Below are positions 1 through 43,170 of a stretch of DNA of 64,000 nucleotides, piece by piece. The stretch is taken from NCBI RefSeq assembly GCF_054482525.1, contig NZ_CM137006.1; one strand, given 5' to 3'. The position numbers and the translations under genes were made by a program. The number at the start of each line of letters is the position of its first letter. The first letter of the stretch is position 1. The notes below the pieces were generated by a model, which was not told the origin of the DNA, searched no databases, and saw only the letters and a program-made list of their open reading frames with translations.

Positions 1-2
1 TC

Positions 3-668
3 GTGCCGGATTACCTCTATCTGGTGGTGGTGCCCGTCTGTTCGCTGATCCTCGCGGTGTTCCTCGCCCATGCGCTGATTGGTCCGTTTGGTCGCATGAT
101 TGGCGATGGCGTTGCCTTTGCGGTACGTCACCTGATGACCGGCAGCTTTGCTCCGATTGGCGCGGCATTGTTTGGCTTCCTGTACGCCCCGCTGGTGATC
201 ACCGGCGTACATCAGACCACGCTTGCTATTGATTTGCAGATGATTCAAAGCATGGGTGGTACGCCAGTGTGGCCGCTGATTGCGCTGTCGAATATCGCTC
301 AGGGTTCCGCCGTGATAGGCATTATCATTTCCAGCCGCAAGCACAATGAACGCGAGATCTCCGTGCCTGCCGCTATCTCCGCCTGGCTTGGAGTCACTGA
401 GCCTGCTATGTACGGCATCAACCTGAAATATCGCTTCCCGATGCTGTGCGCGATGATTGGTTCTGGTCTGGCAGGATTGCTATGCGGCCTGAACGGCGTT
501 ATGGCGAATGGCATCGGCGTAGGCGGCCTGCCGGGAATTCTCTCGATTCAACCGAGCTACTGGCAGGTGTTTGCGCTGGCAATGGCTATCGCCATCATCA
601 TCCCGATTGTACTCACCTCGTTTATCTATCAGCGGAAATACCGCCTGGGCACGCTGGACATTGTTTAA
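3..668 (+). CDS. treB: PTS trehalose-specific EIIBC component, C-terminal part (5' end outside window)
   Basis: ORF-track translation is a polytopic membrane protein; lies directly upstream of treC as in the E. coli treBC operon. Confidence 0.85.
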   Translation: MPDYLYLVVVPVCSLILAVFLAHALIGPFGRMIGDGVAFAVRHLMTGSFAPIGAALFGFLYAPLVITGVHQTTLAIDLQMIQSMGGTPVWPLIALSNIAQGSAVIGIIISSRKHNEREISVPAAISAWLGVTEPAMYGINLKYRFPMLCAMIGSGLAGLLCGLNGVMANGIGVGGLPGILSIQPSYWQVFALAMAIAIIIPIVLTSFIYQRKYRLGTLDIV

Positions 669-717
669 TTTTCTTCGGGGCGCAATTGCGCCCCCTCGCA
701 TTTGCAGGAATAACGTA

Positions 718-2373
718 ATGACTAATCTTCCCCACTGGTGGCAAAACGGCGTTATCTACCAGATTTATCCAAAGAGTTTTCAGGACACCACGGGTAGCGG
801 CACCGGCGATTTACGTGGCGTTATCCAGCGCCTGGACTATCTGCATAAACTGGGCGTTGATGCCATCTGGCTAACCCCCTTTTATGTCTCTCCCCAGGTT
901 GATAACGGTTACGACGTAGCGAACTATACGGCGATTGATCCCACCTACGGCACGCTGGACGATTTTGACGAACTGGTGACACAGGCAAAATCGCGCGGGA
1001 TTCGTATCATTCTCGATATGGTGTTTAACCATACCTCTACCCAACATGCCTGGTTTCGCGAGGCGCTGAACAAAGCAAGCCCTTACCGCCAGTTTTATAT
1101 CTGGCGCGATGGAGAACCAGAAACGCCACCGAACAACTGGCGTTCAAAATTCGGTGGTAGTGCGTGGCGCTGGCATGCGGAAAGCGAACAGTACTATTTG
1201 CATCTCTTTGCACCAGAACAGGCGGATCTCAACTGGGAGAATCCAGCGGTACGCGCAGAGCTGAAAAAAGTCTGTGAGTTCTGGGCCGATCGTGGGGTCG
1301 ACGGGTTGCGCCTGGATGTGGTGAATCTGATCTCCAAAGACCCGCGTTTCCCTGATGACCTGGATGGCGACGGGCGTCGCTTCTACACCGACGGGCCACG
1401 AGCACACGAGTTTTTGCACGAGATGAACCGCGATGTGTTTACGCCACGCGGGTTAATGACCGTAGGTGAAATGTCCTCCACCAGCCTTGAGCATTGCCAG
1501 CGATACGCGGCTCTGACAGGCAGTGAATTGTCGATGACCTTTAATTTTCATCACCTGAAGGTCGATTATCCCGGTGGTGAGAAATGGACGCTGGCTAAAC
1601 CTGACTTTGTGGCGTTAAAAACATTGTTCCGCCACTGGCAACAAGGAATGCACAACGTGGCATGGAATGCCTTGTTCTGGTGTAACCACGATCAGCCGCG
1701 CATTGTTTCTCGCTTTGGTGATGAAGGTGAATACCGCGTGCCTGCGGCAAAAATGCTGGCGATGGTGCTGCATGGCATGCAGGGAACGCCATATATCTAC
1801 CAGGGCGAAGAGATTGGCATGACTAACCCACATTTCACGCGCATTACTGACTATCGCGACGTGGAGAGCCTCAATATGTTTGCCGAGCTGCGCAACGATG
1901 GGCGTGATACCGACGAGTTATTGGCAATCCTCGCCAGTAAATCCCGTGACAACAGTCGCACACCCATGCAATGGAGCAACGGCGATAATGCCGGGTTTAC
2001 GGCTGGCGAACCGTGGATTGGCCTGGGCGATAACTATCAGGAAATCAACGTAGAAGCCGCGCTGGCCGATGAGTCCTCGGTGTTTTACACCTACCAAAAG
2101 TTAATCGCACTGCGTAAGCAAGAAGCCGTCCTGACATGGGGCGATTACCAGGATCTGCTGCCAAACAGTCCTGTATTGTGGTGCTATCGCCGTGAATGGA
2201 AGGGGCAAACCTTGTTGGTCATTGCCAACCTTAGCCATGAGATCCAACCCTGGCAGCCAGGGCAAATGCGCGGCAACTGGCAGCTTGTGATGCATAACTA
2301 CGAAGAAGCCTCACCACAACCCTGTGCCATGACTTTACGGCCTTTTGAGGCTGTCTGGTGGTTACAGAAGTAA
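718..2373 (+). CDS. treC: trehalose-6-phosphate hydrolase
   Basis: 551 aa from ATG at 718; glycoside hydrolase family 13 sequence recognised as TreC; ORF-track frame extends upstream, start chosen to match known length. Confidence 0.93.
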   Translation: MTNLPHWWQNGVIYQIYPKSFQDTTGSGTGDLRGVIQRLDYLHKLGVDAIWLTPFYVSPQVDNGYDVANYTAIDPTYGTLDDFDELVTQAKSRGIRIILDMVFNHTSTQHAWFREALNKASPYRQFYIWRDGEPETPPNNWRSKFGGSAWRWHAESEQYYLHLFAPEQADLNWENPAVRAELKKVCEFWADRGVDGLRLDVVNLISKDPRFPDDLDGDGRRFYTDGPRAHEFLHEMNRDVFTPRGLMTVGEMSSTSLEHCQRYAALTGSELSMTFNFHHLKVDYPGGEKWTLAKPDFVALKTLFRHWQQGMHNVAWNALFWCNHDQPRIVSRFGDEGEYRVPAAKMLAMVLHGMQGTPYIYQGEEIGMTNPHFTRITDYRDVESLNMFAELRNDGRDTDELLAILASKSRDNSRTPMQWSNGDNAGFTAGEPWIGLGDNYQEINVEAALADESSVFYTYQKLIALRKQEAVLTWGDYQDLLPNSPVLWCYRREWKGQTLLVIANLSHEIQPWQPGQMRGNWQLVMHNYEEASPQPCAMTLRPFEAVWWLQK

Positions 2374-2517
2374 ATCTTCGCTAAGCCCCGGTAATGCCTG
2401 TCATTCCGGGCTTTTGCCTGTCAGTATGTTGTTTTTGTTGATTTTATAATCAAAAAATTCATTAAAAAATTTACATATCGTTGTAGCGCCCGTCATCCGT
2501 ACGCTCTGCTTTTTACT

Positions 2518-2531
2518 TTGAGCTACATCAA
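2518..2531. promoter_or_regulatory. FNR-like site TTGAGctacATCAA upstream of nrdD
   Basis: One mismatch to TTGAT-N4-ATCAA; nrdDG is known to be FNR-activated. Confidence 0.5.
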
Positions 2532-2548
2532 AAAAAGTTCAAACATCC

Positions 2549-2562
2549 TTGATGCAAAGCAC
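2549..2562. promoter_or_regulatory. second, weaker FNR-like half-site region (TTGATgcaaAGCAC)
   Basis: TTGAT half-site roughly 30 bp downstream of first site. Confidence 0.35.
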
Positions 2563-2604
2563 TATATATAGACTTTAAAATGCGTCCCAACCCAATATGT
2601 TGTA
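2558..2604. promoter_or_regulatory. putative NrdR boxes (cactatatatag ... cccaatatgttgt)
   Basis: Two AT-rich palindrome-like motifs about three helical turns apart upstream of nrdD, resembling NrdR-box architecture. Confidence 0.4.
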
Positions 2605-2766
2605 TTAATCGACTATAATTGCTACTACAGCTCCCCACGAAAAAGGTGCGGCGTTGTGGATAAGCGGATGGCGATTGCGGAAAGCACCGGAAAACGAAAC
2701 AAAAAAACCGGAAAACGCCTTTCCCAATTTCTGTGGATAACCTGTTCTTAAAAATATGGAGCGATC

Positions 2767-4905
2767 ATGACACCGCATGTGATGAAACGAGACGGCTGCA
2801 AAGTGCCGTTTAAATCAGAGCGCATCAAAGAAGCGATTCTGCGTGCAGCTAAAGCAGCGGAAGTCGATGATGCCGATTATTGCGCCACTGTTGCTGCGGT
2901 TGTCAGCGAGCAGATGCAGGGCCGCAACCAGGTGGATATCAATGAGATCCAGACCGCAGTTGAAAACCAGCTGATGTCGGGTCCATACAAACAACTGGCT
3001 CGTGCTTACATCGAGTACCGTCACGATCGCGACATTGAACGTGAAAAACGCGGTCGCCTGAACCAGGAGATCCGTGGTCTGGTCGAGCAGACCAACTCCT
3101 CGTTACTCAACGAAAACGCCAACAAAGACAGCAAGGTGATTCCAACCCAGCGCGATCTGCTGGCCGGGATCGTGGCTAAACACTATGCACGCCAGCACCT
3201 GCTGCCGCGTGACGTGGTGCAGGCACATGAACGTGGTGATATTCACTATCACGATCTCGATTACTCGCCGTTCTTCCCGATGTTCAACTGCATGTTGATC
3301 GACCTGAAAGGCATGCTGACCCAGGGCTTTAAAATGGGGAACGCCGAGATTGAACCGCCGAAGTCGATCTCTACGGCAACCGCTGTAACTGCGCAGATTA
3401 TTGCTCAGGTCGCCAGCCATATTTATGGCGGCACCACCATTAACCGTATCGATGAAGTGCTGGCACCGTTTGTCACCGCCAGCTACAACAAACATCGCAA
3501 GACCGCAGAAGAGTGGAACATCCCGGACGCCGAAGGCTACGCTAACTCTCGTACCATCAAAGAGTGCTACGATGCCTTCCAGTCGCTGGAGTACGAAGTA
3601 AACACCCTGCACACCGCCAACGGTCAAACACCGTTTGTGACCTTTGGTTTTGGTCTGGGCACCAGCTGGGAATCGCGCCTGATTCAGGAATCTATCCTGC
3701 GTAATCGTATCGCAGGCCTCGGTAAAAACCGTAAAACTGCGGTGTTCCCGAAACTGGTGTTTGCGATTCGCGATGGCCTGAACCATAAAAAAGGCGATCC
3801 GAACTACGACATCAAACAGCTGGCGCTGGAGTGCGCAAGCAAGCGCATGTATCCGGATATCCTGAACTACGATCAGGTAGTGAAAGTCACCGGTTCGTTT
3901 AAAACCCCGATGGGCTGCCGCAGCTTCCTCGGCGTGTGGGAAAATGAAAACGGCGAGCAGATCCACGATGGTCGTAACAACCTCGGCGTGATCAGCCTGA
4001 ACCTGCCGCGTATTGCTCTGGAGGCAAAAGGCGATGAAGCCACCTTCTGGAAGCTGCTGGATGAACGTCTGGTGCTGGCACGTAAGGCGCTGATGACCCG
4101 TATCGCTCGTCTCGAAGGCGTGAAAGCGCGCGTGGCCCCGATCCTCTATATGGAAGGTGCTTGTGGCGTGCGTCTCAATGCTGACGATGATGTTTCTGAA
4201 ATCTTCAAAAACGGTCGTGCGTCTATTTCGCTGGGTTACATCGGCATCCACGAAACCATTAACGCGCTGTTCGGCGGCGAGCATGTTTACGACAACGAGC
4301 AGCTTCGCGCGAAAGGTATCGCGATTGTTGAACGTCTGCGTCAGGCGGTGGATCAGTGGAAAGAAGAAACGGGTTATGGTTTCAGTCTCTACAGCACGCC
4401 AAGTGAAAACCTGTGCGACCGCTTCTGCCGTCTCGATACCGCTGAGTTTGGCGTGGTGCCGGGCGTGACCGATAAAGGTTACTACACCAACAGTTTCCAC
4501 CTTGATGTGGAGAAAAAGGTGAACCCGTATGACAAGATCGACTTTGAAGCGCCTTACCCGCCGCTGGCGAACGGTGGTTTCATTTGCTACGGCGAGTATC
4601 CAAACATTCAGCACAACCTGAAGGCGCTGGAAGATGTCTGGGATTACAGCTATCAGCATGTACCGTATTACGGCACCAATACGCCGATCGATGAGTGCTA
4701 CGAGTGTGGCTTTACCGGTGAGTTCGAGTGCACTAGTAAAGGCTTCACTTGCCCGAAATGTGGTAACCATGACGCCTCCCGTGTGTCGGTGACTCGCCGC
4801 GTGTGCGGATATTTAGGTAGCCCGGATGCACGTCCGTTTAACGCTGGTAAGCAGGAAGAAGTTAAGCGCCGCGTTAAACATTTGGGAAATGGGCAGATCG
4901 GTTAA
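2767..4905 (+). CDS. nrdD: anaerobic ribonucleoside-triphosphate reductase (glycyl radical enzyme)
   Basis: 712 aa; C-terminal RVCGYLG glycyl-radical motif and Cys-rich Zn site; recognised as NrdD. Confidence 0.95.
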   Translation: MTPHVMKRDGCKVPFKSERIKEAILRAAKAAEVDDADYCATVAAVVSEQMQGRNQVDINEIQTAVENQLMSGPYKQLARAYIEYRHDRDIEREKRGRLNQEIRGLVEQTNSSLLNENANKDSKVIPTQRDLLAGIVAKHYARQHLLPRDVVQAHERGDIHYHDLDYSPFFPMFNCMLIDLKGMLTQGFKMGNAEIEPPKSISTATAVTAQIIAQVASHIYGGTTINRIDEVLAPFVTASYNKHRKTAEEWNIPDAEGYANSRTIKECYDAFQSLEYEVNTLHTANGQTPFVTFGFGLGTSWESRLIQESILRNRIAGLGKNRKTAVFPKLVFAIRDGLNHKKGDPNYDIKQLALECASKRMYPDILNYDQVVKVTGSFKTPMGCRSFLGVWENENGEQIHDGRNNLGVISLNLPRIALEAKGDEATFWKLLDERLVLARKALMTRIARLEGVKARVAPILYMEGACGVRLNADDDVSEIFKNGRASISLGYIGIHETINALFGGEHVYDNEQLRAKGIAIVERLRQAVDQWKEETGYGFSLYSTPSENLCDRFCRLDTAEFGVVPGVTDKGYYTNSFHLDVEKKVNPYDKIDFEAPYPPLANGGFICYGEYPNIQHNLKALEDVWDYSYQHVPYYGTNTPIDECYECGFTGEFECTSKGFTCPKCGNHDASRVSVTRRVCGYLGSPDARPFNAGKQEEVKRRVKHLGNGQIG

Positions 4906-38799: not shown

Positions 38800-39438
38800 A
38801 TGCCCGGGCGCTTTGAACTAAAACCAACCCTGGAGAAAGTCTGGCACGCGCCGGACAATTTTCGCTTCATGGACCCGCTGCCGCCGATGCATCGTCGGGG
38901 GATCATTATTGCCGCCATTGTATTGGTGGTCGGATTTCTGCTTCCATCTGATGATACGCCCAACGCGCCGGTGGTGACGCGTGAAGCGCAGTTAGATATT
39001 CAGTCGCAATCACAACCGCCGACAGAAGAACAGCTGCGGGCGCAATTAGTCACACCACAAAATGATCCTGATCAGGTGGCTCCGGTCGCTCCAGAACCTA
39101 TACAGGAAGGCCAGCCAGAAGAGCAGCCGCAAACCACCCAAACGCAACCATTCCAGCCAGATAGCGGAATTGATAATCAATGGCGCTCCTATCGTGTCGA
39201 ACCCGGTAAAACGATGGCGCAGCTGTTCCGCGACCACGGACTGCCCGCTACCGATGTCTATGCAATGGCGCAGGTTGAAGGCGCGGGTAAGCCGCTGAGT
39301 AATTTGCAAAACGGGCAGATGGTGAAAATCCGCCAGAACGCCAGCGGCGTGGTGACGGGCTTAACCATTGATACGGGGAATAATCAACAGGTCTTGTTTA
39401 CCCGCCAGCCGGATGGCAGTTTTATTCGTGCGCGGTAG
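38800..39438 (+). CDS. ytfB: OapA-domain cell-division protein with Pro/Gln-rich linker
   Basis: 212 aa from ATG at 38800. Confidence 0.85.
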
Positions 39439-39538
39439 ATGAAGGGTCAACCAAAAGCCAGCTAAGGAGCGTCTCTTTGATGACCTTACGTCTGGCTTCC
39501 AGTGCCTGGGGGGAAACCATACTGATATGTTGACATCC

Positions 39539-39558
39539 TCCACGCCCTGAAGGACGTG
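39539..39558. repeat. sub-terminal hairpin CCACGCCCTGAAGGACGTGG (TnpB-proximal end)
   Basis: Perfect hairpin read from sequence; matches the hairpin at the other end except two stem bases. Confidence 0.55.
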
Positions 39559-39572
39559 GATCCCTGCTACGT

Positions 39573-40781
39573 TCAGGCTGTCGCCTGAATCATTTCGGTG
39601 GGTTCCTGCTTCAACGAGCGGCCTGACTGCACCATCTCTCCACAGGCAAGAACGGCGTGTCCCGCCGCTAAAATGTTACGAGCGCCGTTTACATCGGCGT
39701 TCGCTGTATATCCACATACCTGGCATCTGAATTTACTTTGTGACAGGCGATTTTCTTTCGCTGTATGACCACAGCACGCGCAACGCTGGCTTGTGTACGC
39801 TGGCGGAACAGCAAGCACCTGACCGCCACTCCAGAGCTGCTTGTACTCAAGCTGGCGGCGCATTTCATACCAGCCCTGATCCAGTATCGAACGGTTTAAA
39901 CCTGATTTTGCCCGGACATTGCGCCCCGGCTGGCTGACCGTACCCGCTGCTGACTTTGACATGTTGCTGACCTTCAAATCCTCAATGACTATCATTGCGT
40001 GGTTTTTGCTGACGGTCGTTGTGACTTTGTGAAGGTAGTCCCTGCGGATATTTGCGATACAGGAATGCAGTCGCTGTATTTTGCGTTTCTGCTTCTGCCA
40101 GTTGTTGCTGAATTTGACCTTGCGGCTTAACTGTCGCTGAAGTCTCGCCAGCGTCTTCTGGTTTTTCTGAAAACTGTTTACAGGCTCAAAGACTGTGCCA
40201 TCTGACAGCGTGGCGAGTTTAGCCACGCCAGCATCCAGCCCGACCATTGATGCTGAAGGGTGAACCGGAGTTGATACTTCACTTTCTGTCTGAATACTGA
40301 TGTACCACTTACCGCAGGACTGGCTGACCGTGACATTTTTCACAACACCCGTGACCTGACGGCTATTCCGGTAGCGCATCCAGCCCAGTTTCGGCAGAAA
40401 AATACGGCTGTTTTCCTGATCGAGCTTAACGCCCTGCGGGTAGCGGAATGCATCATTCTGTCCCCGCTTTTTGAATCGGGGAAAAGCAGCCCGCTTCTGG
40501 AAGAAGTTTTTGTAAGCCCGCTCAAGGTCTTTCAGTGATTGTTGCAATGGCTGTGAGGGCGAATCTTTAAGCCATTGCGTTTCAGTGGCGTTTTTCCACT
40601 CAACCAGCCAGGAAGCCATTTTCCCGTAAGGGATGTATTTATTACCGGCCTTATGATTCTCATTCTGAAGCGCCAGAGCACGATTGAAAACGAAACGACA
40701 TGCGCCTGCGAAGCGCCTCATTTCACACTCCTGTTGACCACCTGGTCTTAACTGGAATTTAAATGCCTGTAATCGTTTCAC
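39573..40781 (-). CDS. tnpB: TnpB (IS200/IS605 OrfB; RuvC-like RNA-guided nuclease family)
   Basis: 402 aa; GLDAGV (RuvC-I Asp), VIEDL (RuvC-II Glu), CxxC...CxxC zinc finger, DVNGARNI (RuvC-III Asp). Confidence 0.85.
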
Positions 40782-40788
40782 AGGTCAA

Positions 40789-41262
40789 ATGATACTTTGG
40801 TCTGTGAAAAAAGAAACCGATATCCGACGGGGAAGGCATTGTGTTTTCCTGATGCATGTTCACCTGGTCTTTGTCACCAGATACCGACGTCAGATTTTTG
40901 ACTATGACGCGACAGAAAAACTACGCACTTACTTTTCAAATGTATGTGCTGATTTTGAAGCTGAACTGGTTGAAATGGATGGCGAACCAGATCACGTCCA
41001 TTTGTTAATTAACTATCCTCCCAAACTGGCGATATCCAGTCTGGTAAACAGCCTCAAAGGCGTATCGGGTAGGTGACTGCGACGAGATCGACCAGATATT
41101 GCAGTCAGGTATTACTACAAAGGCGTTTTGTGGAGTCCTGGCTATTTTGCCAGTAGCTGCGGAGGTGCGCCAATATCCGTCATCCGCCAATACATTGAAC
41201 AACAGCAAACACCTGGTCAGGTGGAAAACCGCGCCTTATATCCCCGCCCTGAAGGACGGGGT
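40789..41262 (+). pseudogene. tnpA: IS200-type TnpA (Y1 HuH transposase) interrupted by in-frame TGA at 41074-41076
   Basis: 95-aa N-terminal part with HuH-like HVHLL motif; same frame continues after TGA with the conserved LWSPGYF C-terminal motif, then reads through the terminal hairpin. Confidence 0.7.
41242..41261. repeat. sub-terminal hairpin CCCCGCCCTGAAGGACGGGG (TnpA-proximal end)
   Basis: Perfect hairpin read from sequence. Confidence 0.55.
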
Positions 41263-41280
41263 TTTACGGCGCACTGGATA

Positions 41281-41670
41281 AACCAGGCCAAGCGTATGCT
41301 GGTTGATCAAATAATATCCCCCAAGCGCAGCAATATTAATATTCACCTGCAATGGGTCGCTATCTGCCTTAAAAATATTGTGTTTCTTCCCTTCATCCAA
41401 TAATTCCATTAAATGCAAGTGCGCATGATTAATTTCTAAGAGACGCTGTGATTTTGCATAATGCACACCTTTACTTTGGTTTTCACTATGCACAATTTTT
41501 AAAAACCTGGGATTAGCAATATAATAACCCCAGGTAAAATCGATGATTTTTTCAATGGATTTTTGTGGCTGGTTAACCTGCTGATTAACGAACGCACCGA
41601 TACCGACAGCGTAGAATAATTACATACCGCACAACAAGAATGTATGGTGTAAGGCGTTGTCAGTCATCTC
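41281..41670 (-). pseudogene. ytfA: regulator-like remnant at the ytfA position; frame broken by TAA after a 15-codon N-terminal ORF
   Basis: Open frame continues into the IS end; short MTDNALHHTFLLCGM ORF then stop then about 130 in-frame codons; family not assigned. Confidence 0.35.
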
Positions 41671-41843
41671 CCTCCCTGGGTGCACCTTTATATCCGTGAT
41701 GAGCGATTTTTGATATTAATATCTTTTACTATCCGCTATTTTCACCACTTCAGAAAACAAACTTATTTTTATTAATATCGATTATTTATTCTGTGCACAT
41801 TCAGCTGCGATATTTATAAAAAAATTAAACAGGCAAAAATACA

Positions 41844-42638
41844 ATGACATTACCAACCACTATTTATTCATTTCCTGCATATTCACCCCGTTTTTCGTCC
41901 ACCGACAAACCAGTAAAATTAAAATTTCATCAATACGCACGCGCTACATTACTTTCAAATCGTGGAAGAGACCATAATTGCGATGGCAGACATACTGTTG
42001 AGATCCACAAACTAGATCTCTCAGACTGGCAAGCATTCAATAAACTAGCGATGGCGTGTAATGCTTACGATGGAATAACAATGAATGGTGATAATTCTTT
42101 TGGATGGAACCATGAAGCTACATTAGATAATATTCACGCCCAGAAATACAATAAAGCTTACGCGGGTGCGAGGTTAACCGCAGAACTGAAATATTTATTG
42201 CAAGATGTCGAATCCTTCGAACCCAACAGTAAATACACAATACACGAGGTTGTTTTGGGTCCAGGTTATGGTACTCCAGACTATACCGGCCAAACGATAG
42301 GATACGTTGTAACCCTTCCTGCCCAAATGCCTAATTGCTGGTCATCTGAACTACCAACAATCGATCTTTATATCGACCAACTTCGCACTGTTACAGGCGT
42401 TTCTAATGCCCTCGGATTCATCATTGCTGCATTGCTAAACGCGTATTCTGATTTACCCCATGATTTGAAAATTGGTCTGCGTTCCTTATCAGGTTCAGCC
42501 GCAATCTACTCGGGTTTGGGTTTCGAGCGAGTGCCGCAGGAGCGAGACATCAGTTGCGCTCGTATGTATCTAACGCCAGCAAACCATCCTGACTTATGGA
42601 CACAAGAGAATGGTGAATGGATCTACTTGCGAAACTAA
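41844..42638 (+). CDS. yjfZ: hypothetical protein YjfZ
   Basis: 264 aa; AT-rich; conserved position before rplI. Confidence 0.85.
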   Translation: MTLPTTIYSFPAYSPRFSSTDKPVKLKFHQYARATLLSNRGRDHNCDGRHTVEIHKLDLSDWQAFNKLAMACNAYDGITMNGDNSFGWNHEATLDNIHAQKYNKAYAGARLTAELKYLLQDVESFEPNSKYTIHEVVLGPGYGTPDYTGQTIGYVVTLPAQMPNCWSSELPTIDLYIDQLRTVTGVSNALGFIIAALLNAYSDLPHDLKIGLRSLSGSAAIYSGLGFERVPQERDISCARMYLTPANHPDLWTQENGEWIYLRN

Positions 42639-42660
42639 TACCTGACGAAAAATAGAAAGC

Positions 42661-42687
42661 AAAACGCCGACCAGTGGTCGGCGTTTT
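42661..42687. terminator. bidirectional rho-independent terminator between yjfZ and rplI
   Basis: aaaacgccgacc agtg gtcggcgttttt: perfect stem with A-run and T-run flanks. Confidence 0.65.
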
Positions 42688-42708
42688 TACGTCTCGTTGA
42701 ATAACGAA

Positions 42709-43170
<462 letters not shown>

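Follow-up and report, generated by a model that had tools for sequence, protein, structure and literature searches.

Among the relatives of the element at this locus, IS608 and ISDra2 insert as single-stranded DNA 3′ of their target on the lagging-strand template and are excised seamlessly, and their TnpB proteins work with a right-end RNA that takes its guide from the flank beside it (PMC8612924; PMC10055086). IS609 resembles both in inserting 3′ of a short target (TTAC/TTGAT there, TTAT here), without duplication and with seamless empty sites, and the right end TCAA occurs in IS608 and IS609. Unlike the two, it has the gene order of the IS605 type, in which tnpA and tnpB are divergent; IS608 and ISDra2 are the experimentally characterised elements of the IS200/IS605 family. 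The IS609 copy of E. coli K-12, located between ydcO and ydcL, has the same length (1748 bp) as ours and is 98.2% identical over exactly 39530-41277 of our sequence, with the same divergent tnpA and tnpB, subterminal hairpins, left TTAT flank, right-end TCAA and tnpA TGA. It differs in its insertion site and by 32 substitutions in 1748 bp.

The gene which carries the insertion is likewise known in other forms. An intact 215-aa TetR/AcrR regulator (WP_047928953.1, e.g. in strain H2) lies at the same position in 3131 of 5426 complete E. coli genomes (~58%) and comprises the Pfam domains TetR_N (residues 19-61) and TetR_C_29 (residues 83-201). Its gene is convergent with ytfB, which it overlaps by 17 nt, and divergent to a nine-gene operon that reaches rplI and encodes an SDR reductase, a sugar-phosphate isomerase, an enoyl-CoA hydratase, a CoA-transferase, an FAD oxidoreductase and a TRAP transporter. 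In K-12, ytfA (b4205) lies between ytfB and yjfZ and is a pseudogene of 402 nt in NC_000913.3, corresponding to residues 83-215, which are 133 codons of the TetR C-terminal domain.

The sequence analysed here, referred to as the window, is a stretch of 64,000 nucleotides. A 751-bp query across the region of interest is 100% identical to the chromosome of E. coli PCN033. Over a 6.75-kb stretch of PCN033 the window differs by one base, at 42928; it has C where the RefSeq PCN033 record has A, which is synonymous in rplI codon 77. We read the locus as a twice-damaged, non-functional TetR/AcrR regulator gene, ytfA, which was truncated and then split by IS609, and assign this reading a probability of about 93%. 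The features are compiled in Table 1.

Table 1. Features of the ytfB-yjfZ region, in window coordinates.
Feature	Position	Strand	Basis or remark
ytfB	38800-39438	+	RefSeq PCN033
TetR/AcrR pseudogene fragment, 'missing N-terminus'	39422-39529	-	RefSeq PCN033
ytfA 3′ fragment, native last 35 codons and stop	39422-39529	-	alignment; 17-nt overlap with ytfB 3′ end
IS609 (IS200/IS605 family), 1748 bp	39530-41277	-	left end 41277, right end 39530 ending TCAA
Right-end subterminal hairpin TCCACGTCC-TTCA-GGGCGTGGA (top strand)	39538-39559	-	hairpin scan
tnpB/insQ, intact, 402-aa RNA-guided endonuclease gene	39573-40781	-	RefSeq, Pfam
tnpA (Y1 transposase) pseudogene	40789-41214	+	in-frame TGA at codon 96 (41074-41076)
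IS-encoded tail of chimeric ORF (13 codons) and TGA (41238-41236)	41236-41277	-	translation
Left-end subterminal hairpin CCCCGTCC-TTCA-GGGCGGGG (top strand)	41243-41262	-	z = -3.3
Second TetR pseudogene fragment, 'missing N- and C-terminus'	41257-41568	-	RefSeq PCN033
TTAT target (ATAA on +), directly 5′ of IS609 left end	41278-41281	-	empty-site comparison
ytfA middle fragment, 97 codons, residues 83-180 of the 215-aa TetR/AcrR regulator (TetR_C_29)	41278-41568	-	alignment, Pfam
3-ketoacyl-ACP reductase (SDR) remnant, about codons 30-64	41573-41678	+	blastn to strain H2 locus L004 1654-1758
TAA ending the 15-codon ORF	41620-41622	-	outside the ancestral TetR coding sequence; same TAA in K-12
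15-codon ORF MTDNALHHTFLLCGM	41623-41667	-	antisense to reductase-gene remnant, not regulator
yjfZ (DUF2686)	41844-42638	+	RefSeq, Pfam; replaces the operon once under the regulator in K-12-type genomes

Translation of the minus strand from 41685 to 41230 yields the 15-codon ORF, directly followed by a TAA and then by 127 sense codons (41619-41239) up to a TGA. The 127-codon frame crosses the IS boundary at 41277/41278, gains 13 IS-encoded codons, traverses the left-end hairpin and ends at a TGA which lies 4 nt beyond the hairpin and 39 nt inside the IS. The original prediction had described just this arrangement, a regulator-like remnant of about 130 open codons fused in frame to the IS end, and its start coordinate, 41281, misses the actual junction of IS and flank by no more than 4 nt. 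This observation is confirmed, with 127 as the actual count, and the interpretation attached to it is partly supported. The frame is not fortuitous, because 97 of its 127 codons match TetR_C_29 (PF17938; Pfam E=6.7e-23, profile positions 1-109 of 119) and residues 83-180 of the intact E. coli TetR regulator; the rest of TetR_C_29 is found in the displaced 3′ fragment.

The domain match and the comparison with K-12, in which both the orthologous position between ytfB and yjfZ and the 5′ truncation junction of b4205 are found again, identify the predicted regulator remnant as ytfA. The sequence is a non-functional remnant of a TetR/AcrR family member. In a tblastn search with the intact protein, residues 83-187 were recovered at 41568-41257 and residues 177-215 at 39541-39425, and no match to residues 1-82 was obtained anywhere in the 64-kb window. 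Pfam analysis of the remnant likewise gave no TetR_N helix-turn-helix (PF00440), which the intact orthologue contains at residues 19-61 (E=1.9e-14). Residues 83-215 of the intact protein are collinear with the two PCN033 fragments; the nine-gene operon to which its gene is divergent is lacking in PCN033. With K-12 ytfA the PCN033 copy has in common the N-terminal truncation point, the adjoining reductase debris and the TAA; it differs from it by IS609 after codon 180 (ancestral numbering), a one-codon deletion and ~6% divergence of the middle fragment. Against the intact protein, the middle fragment shows the one-codon deletion and 7 substitutions in 97 codons. On the DNA level, this fragment, which also has the 3-bp deletion, is ~6% diverged, compared with ~2% for the ytfB region beside it and 0.4% for rplI-rpsR, and from these values the decay in PCN033 looks neutral. 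The convergent overlap, in which the stop-proximal 17 nt of ytfB (39422-39438) cover the ytfA frame on the opposite strand, is kept in alleles of all three kinds (intact, K-12-type and IS-bearing).

Homology to the intact regulator ends at 41568/41569. Beyond this point lies a decayed piece of the adjacent SDR reductase gene, 80% identical to nt 89-193 of the intact gene of H2 and with two stops in frame; in its plus-strand translation a 23-residue stretch is still recognisable in comparison with FNLLINDLPDADSVEKLHITQQEC of the intact gene. Hence the 15-codon ORF, its TAA and 17 codons at the start of the 127-codon frame are debris of the neighbouring gene read in antisense, and their earlier assignment to the decaying regulator gene does not hold. 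Comparison with the intact locus shows the first step: in the ancestor of K-12-type genomes about 545 bp were deleted, comprising codons 1-82 (with the helix-turn-helix), the promoter region between the divergent genes and the initial 88 nt of the SDR reductase gene next to it. In place of the remaining operon of nine genes (8.8 kb), which the regulator once controlled, stands yjfZ. The deletion left 133 codons of the ligand-binding domain abutting the antisense reductase debris, from which the 15-codon ORF and its TAA derive. In H2, the regulator and the nine-gene operon (L004 706-10488) stand in place of window 41570-42655. By our counts, yjfZ is present at the ytfB-rplI locus in only ~41% of complete E. 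coli genomes. This gene has been proposed as an E. coli-wide marker (PMC11057252), and the qPCR primers of that study are absent from the yjfZ of the window.

Of 5426 complete genomes, 1744 contain the IS/ytfA junction of the window according to a junction-spanning query, and 483 have the truncated, IS-free configuration of K-12; together they account for essentially all of the 2226 genomes with the truncated-type ytfA-yjfZ arrangement. With a chimeric query consisting of IS end, remnant and intact N-terminus, no combination of IS609 and an intact N-terminus was found among the best matches. Since the truncation is common to K-12, no IS with an intact N-terminus was detected among the best matches and the counts leave essentially no room for one, the IS insertion most probably hit an already dead gene, judging from these comparisons. 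The original prediction had also supposed a gene in decay before the element arrived, and the N-terminal truncation which PCN033 has in common with the IS-free K-12 allele makes this very probable. The order of truncation before insertion is a parsimony argument, and as such most probably correct; alternatively, the insertion may have come first and been followed by precise excision in K-12-like lineages, as this IS family excises precisely.

For a comparison of haplotypes, K-12 (L002) and O158:H23 (L010) were set against L006, L008 and window 41278-42638. The IS-free truncated alleles fall in two groups ~4.5% apart, each of which also holds IS-bearing alleles at a distance of 0.5-0.9%: K-12 is 0.88% from IS-bearing M7638 and O158:H23 is 0.51% from IS-bearing 98222. 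Among 11 IS-bearing alleles, the distances of the IS copies and of their flanks are weakly congruent (r=0.36, Mantel p ~0.02), and in the pair C012 and S42 the flanks are 0.37% and the IS copies 2.06% apart. This co-divergence test on 11 alleles established neither a single ancient insertion nor repeated insertion. The two haplotype groups and the weak congruence hint at precise excision that happened more than once, at re-insertion or at conversion between IS copies at this single TTAT site.

It is very unlikely that the open frame is a live gene for a TetR C-terminal-domain protein without helix-turn-helix, possibly with an IS-encoded tail, that would serve as a ligand sink or as a dominant-negative partner. 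TetR_C_29 is still recognisable in the frame, but the IS deprives it of its last 35 residues. The frame persists in many strains, and in one of them, M11957, PGAP calls a 95-aa hypothetical protein; however, the codon deletion, the 7 substitutions in 97 codons and the ~6% DNA divergence are those of a neutral-looking sequence. An RpoD promoter and H-NS binding were mapped by genomic SELEX in the yjfZ-ytfA spacer of K-12 (PMC3946193), whereas our promoter and terminator scan of 39300-41900, with 5 promoter-like sites against 3.2 +/- 1.6 expected, showed no minus-strand promoter-like site upstream of the remnant in 41570-41843, and the remnant shows no ATG preceded by a recognisable ribosome-binding site. 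In addition, the intact partner and its operon are lost from genomes of the truncated type. We infer that the chimeric ORF is without function, because it lacks both the helix-turn-helix and an evident start codon, its remaining domain is interrupted by the IS, and it evolves at an approximately neutral rate.

According to the original prediction, the insertion had removed and replaced the native 3′ end, so that the gene would now terminate inside the IS and have lost its C-terminus. The open frame does enter the IS and stop 39 nt inside it, but the last 35 native codons and the stop are intact on the other side of the element (39422-39529), and alignment of the empty sites rules this proposal out, which leaves it extremely improbable. 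K-12, without an element at this site, aligns to window 39129-39529 and then straight to 41277-41977, with one ambiguous G common to both blocks; at position 3001 of the K-12 locus, the counterparts of window 39529 and 41277/78 are directly adjacent. In both K-12 and O158:H23 the empty site corresponds to the PCN033 flanks put together, without the loss of a base. When 39530-41277 is removed in silico, GLVY is joined to HISMV and the reading continues to STAHE and the stop, in frame as in K-12 ytfA and in the 215-aa protein of H2. The IS thus sits exactly between codon 180 (TAT, Y180) and codon 181 (CAT, H181) of 215, inside the ancestral coding sequence as had been supposed. The notion that the 15-codon ORF, the TAA and the 127 codons are one nonsense-mutated gene with a regulator start at or upstream of 41667 has practically no chance of being right, for although both ORFs lie in one frame, alignment to the intact locus (L003/L004) rules it out: the match to the intact regulator extends no further than 41569, the counterpart of 41573-41678 is the neighbouring reductase gene on the opposite strand, and the true N-terminus of 82 codons with the helix-turn-helix is absent from the window.

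In the second step, IS609 inserted between codons 180 and 181, on the 3′ side of TTAT, by the single-strand 'peel-and-paste' route of its family. The empty sites show that no base was deleted or duplicated in this event, which left the pseudogene in the pieces 41278-41568 and 39422-39529. The top strand of the element is the minus strand of the window, and it has neither terminal inverted repeats nor a target duplication. Its junctions read TTTAT/CCAGTGCG at the left end and GGATGTCAA/flank at the right end. The left end is preceded by TTAT at two independent loci, as the K-12 ydcO/ydcL copy has the same flank. The element is 97.4-98.7% identical to IS609 copies labelled by RefSeq and to the K-12 insQ element; the RefSeq name for intact copies is 'IS200/IS605-like element IS609'.

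Both genes of the element are readily recognised. TnpA matches Y1_Tnp (E=3e-40) and NF033573 (E=1.3e-39), and TnpB contains HTH_OrfB_IS605, OrfB_IS605 and a Cas12f1-like TNB domain, with 384.7 bits for NF040570 against a cut-off of 100. Because of the TGA at codon 96 of tnpA, this IS609 copy is probably non-autonomous. The usual TAG stop of tnpA at codon 144 (41218-41220) is CAG here. Most copies have CAG where the 143-aa reference TnpA has its TAG as codon 144, and the frame then exits via the left end into the flank. The codon-96 TGA is also present in K-12 IS609 (ydcO/ydcL) and in the ytfA copy of strain 98222; other copies at the ytfA site have TTA (Leu). The same nonsense codon at independent loci points to mobilisation in trans or to conversion between IS copies. 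In the O111:H8 strain 02-3334 (L007 1-2232), the IS609 at the ytfA site has a truncated tnpB, and on the ytfB side the flank has given way to an IS481-family remnant and an espL2 type III effector pseudogene; the IS here therefore marks the edge of a further rearrangement.

An Rfam scan of 39000-42800 (E<=1) gave no match at gathering score and no RNA element in 41281-41843. Sub-threshold matches were obtained on the minus strand at 39517-39700, around the 3′ end of tnpB and the right end of the IS (RAGATH-18 with 29.5 bits against a gathering score of 44.9, HgcC with 24.6 against 50, and sot0042). A putative omega-RNA would have its expected position here, at the tnpB 3′ end and right end. 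By analogy to IS608 and ISDra2, the intact tnpB together with the putative right-end RNA, whose guide would be the flank CATATCAGTATGGTTT next to TTAT, would cut the empty allele, and such cutting would favour retention of the insertion. In the literature on InsQ/TnpB in E. coli we found no biochemistry specific to the TnpB of IS609. The window has a GC skew of -0.045 on the plus strand, which makes the top strand of IS609 the G-rich strand; this is consistent with a position of the IS609 top strand on the lagging-strand template.

The original prediction expected consequences for the annotation of ytfA. It is right that ytfA is a pseudogene; however, RefSeq already lists two pseudogene fragments flanking the IS in PCN033, labels tnpA 'internal stop' and continues with yjfZ and then rplI. 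In M11957, the chimeric ytfA-IS609 ORF (L012 2287-2574, corresponding to window 41236 to ~41520) is the 95-aa 'hypothetical protein' WP_230278486.1. PGAP is inconsistent among strains, with pseudogene fragments in PCN033 and a hypothetical protein in M11957. The proper annotation is one ytfA pseudogene, complement 41278-41568 joined to complement 39422-39529, with IS609 in between, and neither the 15-codon ORF nor the chimeric 127-codon frame should be called a gene. All parts of the locus (ytfA pseudogene, IS609, TetR_C_29) are known entities and already annotated in RefSeq; in the literature on ytfA, yjfZ and IS609 no study of this junction was found. The main relevance is annotation hygiene, and the finding itself brings no new biology. 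The locus is an example of a pseudogene 'ORF' assembled from three sources that have nothing to do with one another: reductase debris in antisense, a domain of a regulator and the end of an IS.

At this point we can only tentatively suggest, with the odds somewhat against it, that the TTAT site in ytfA is a natural population-scale record of the 'peel-and-paste' dynamics of IS609. If this were true, the site would reflect repeated precise excision, TnpB-guided re-homing or conversion between IS copies, or several of these, at one nucleotide position of the chromosome, and not a single frozen insertion.
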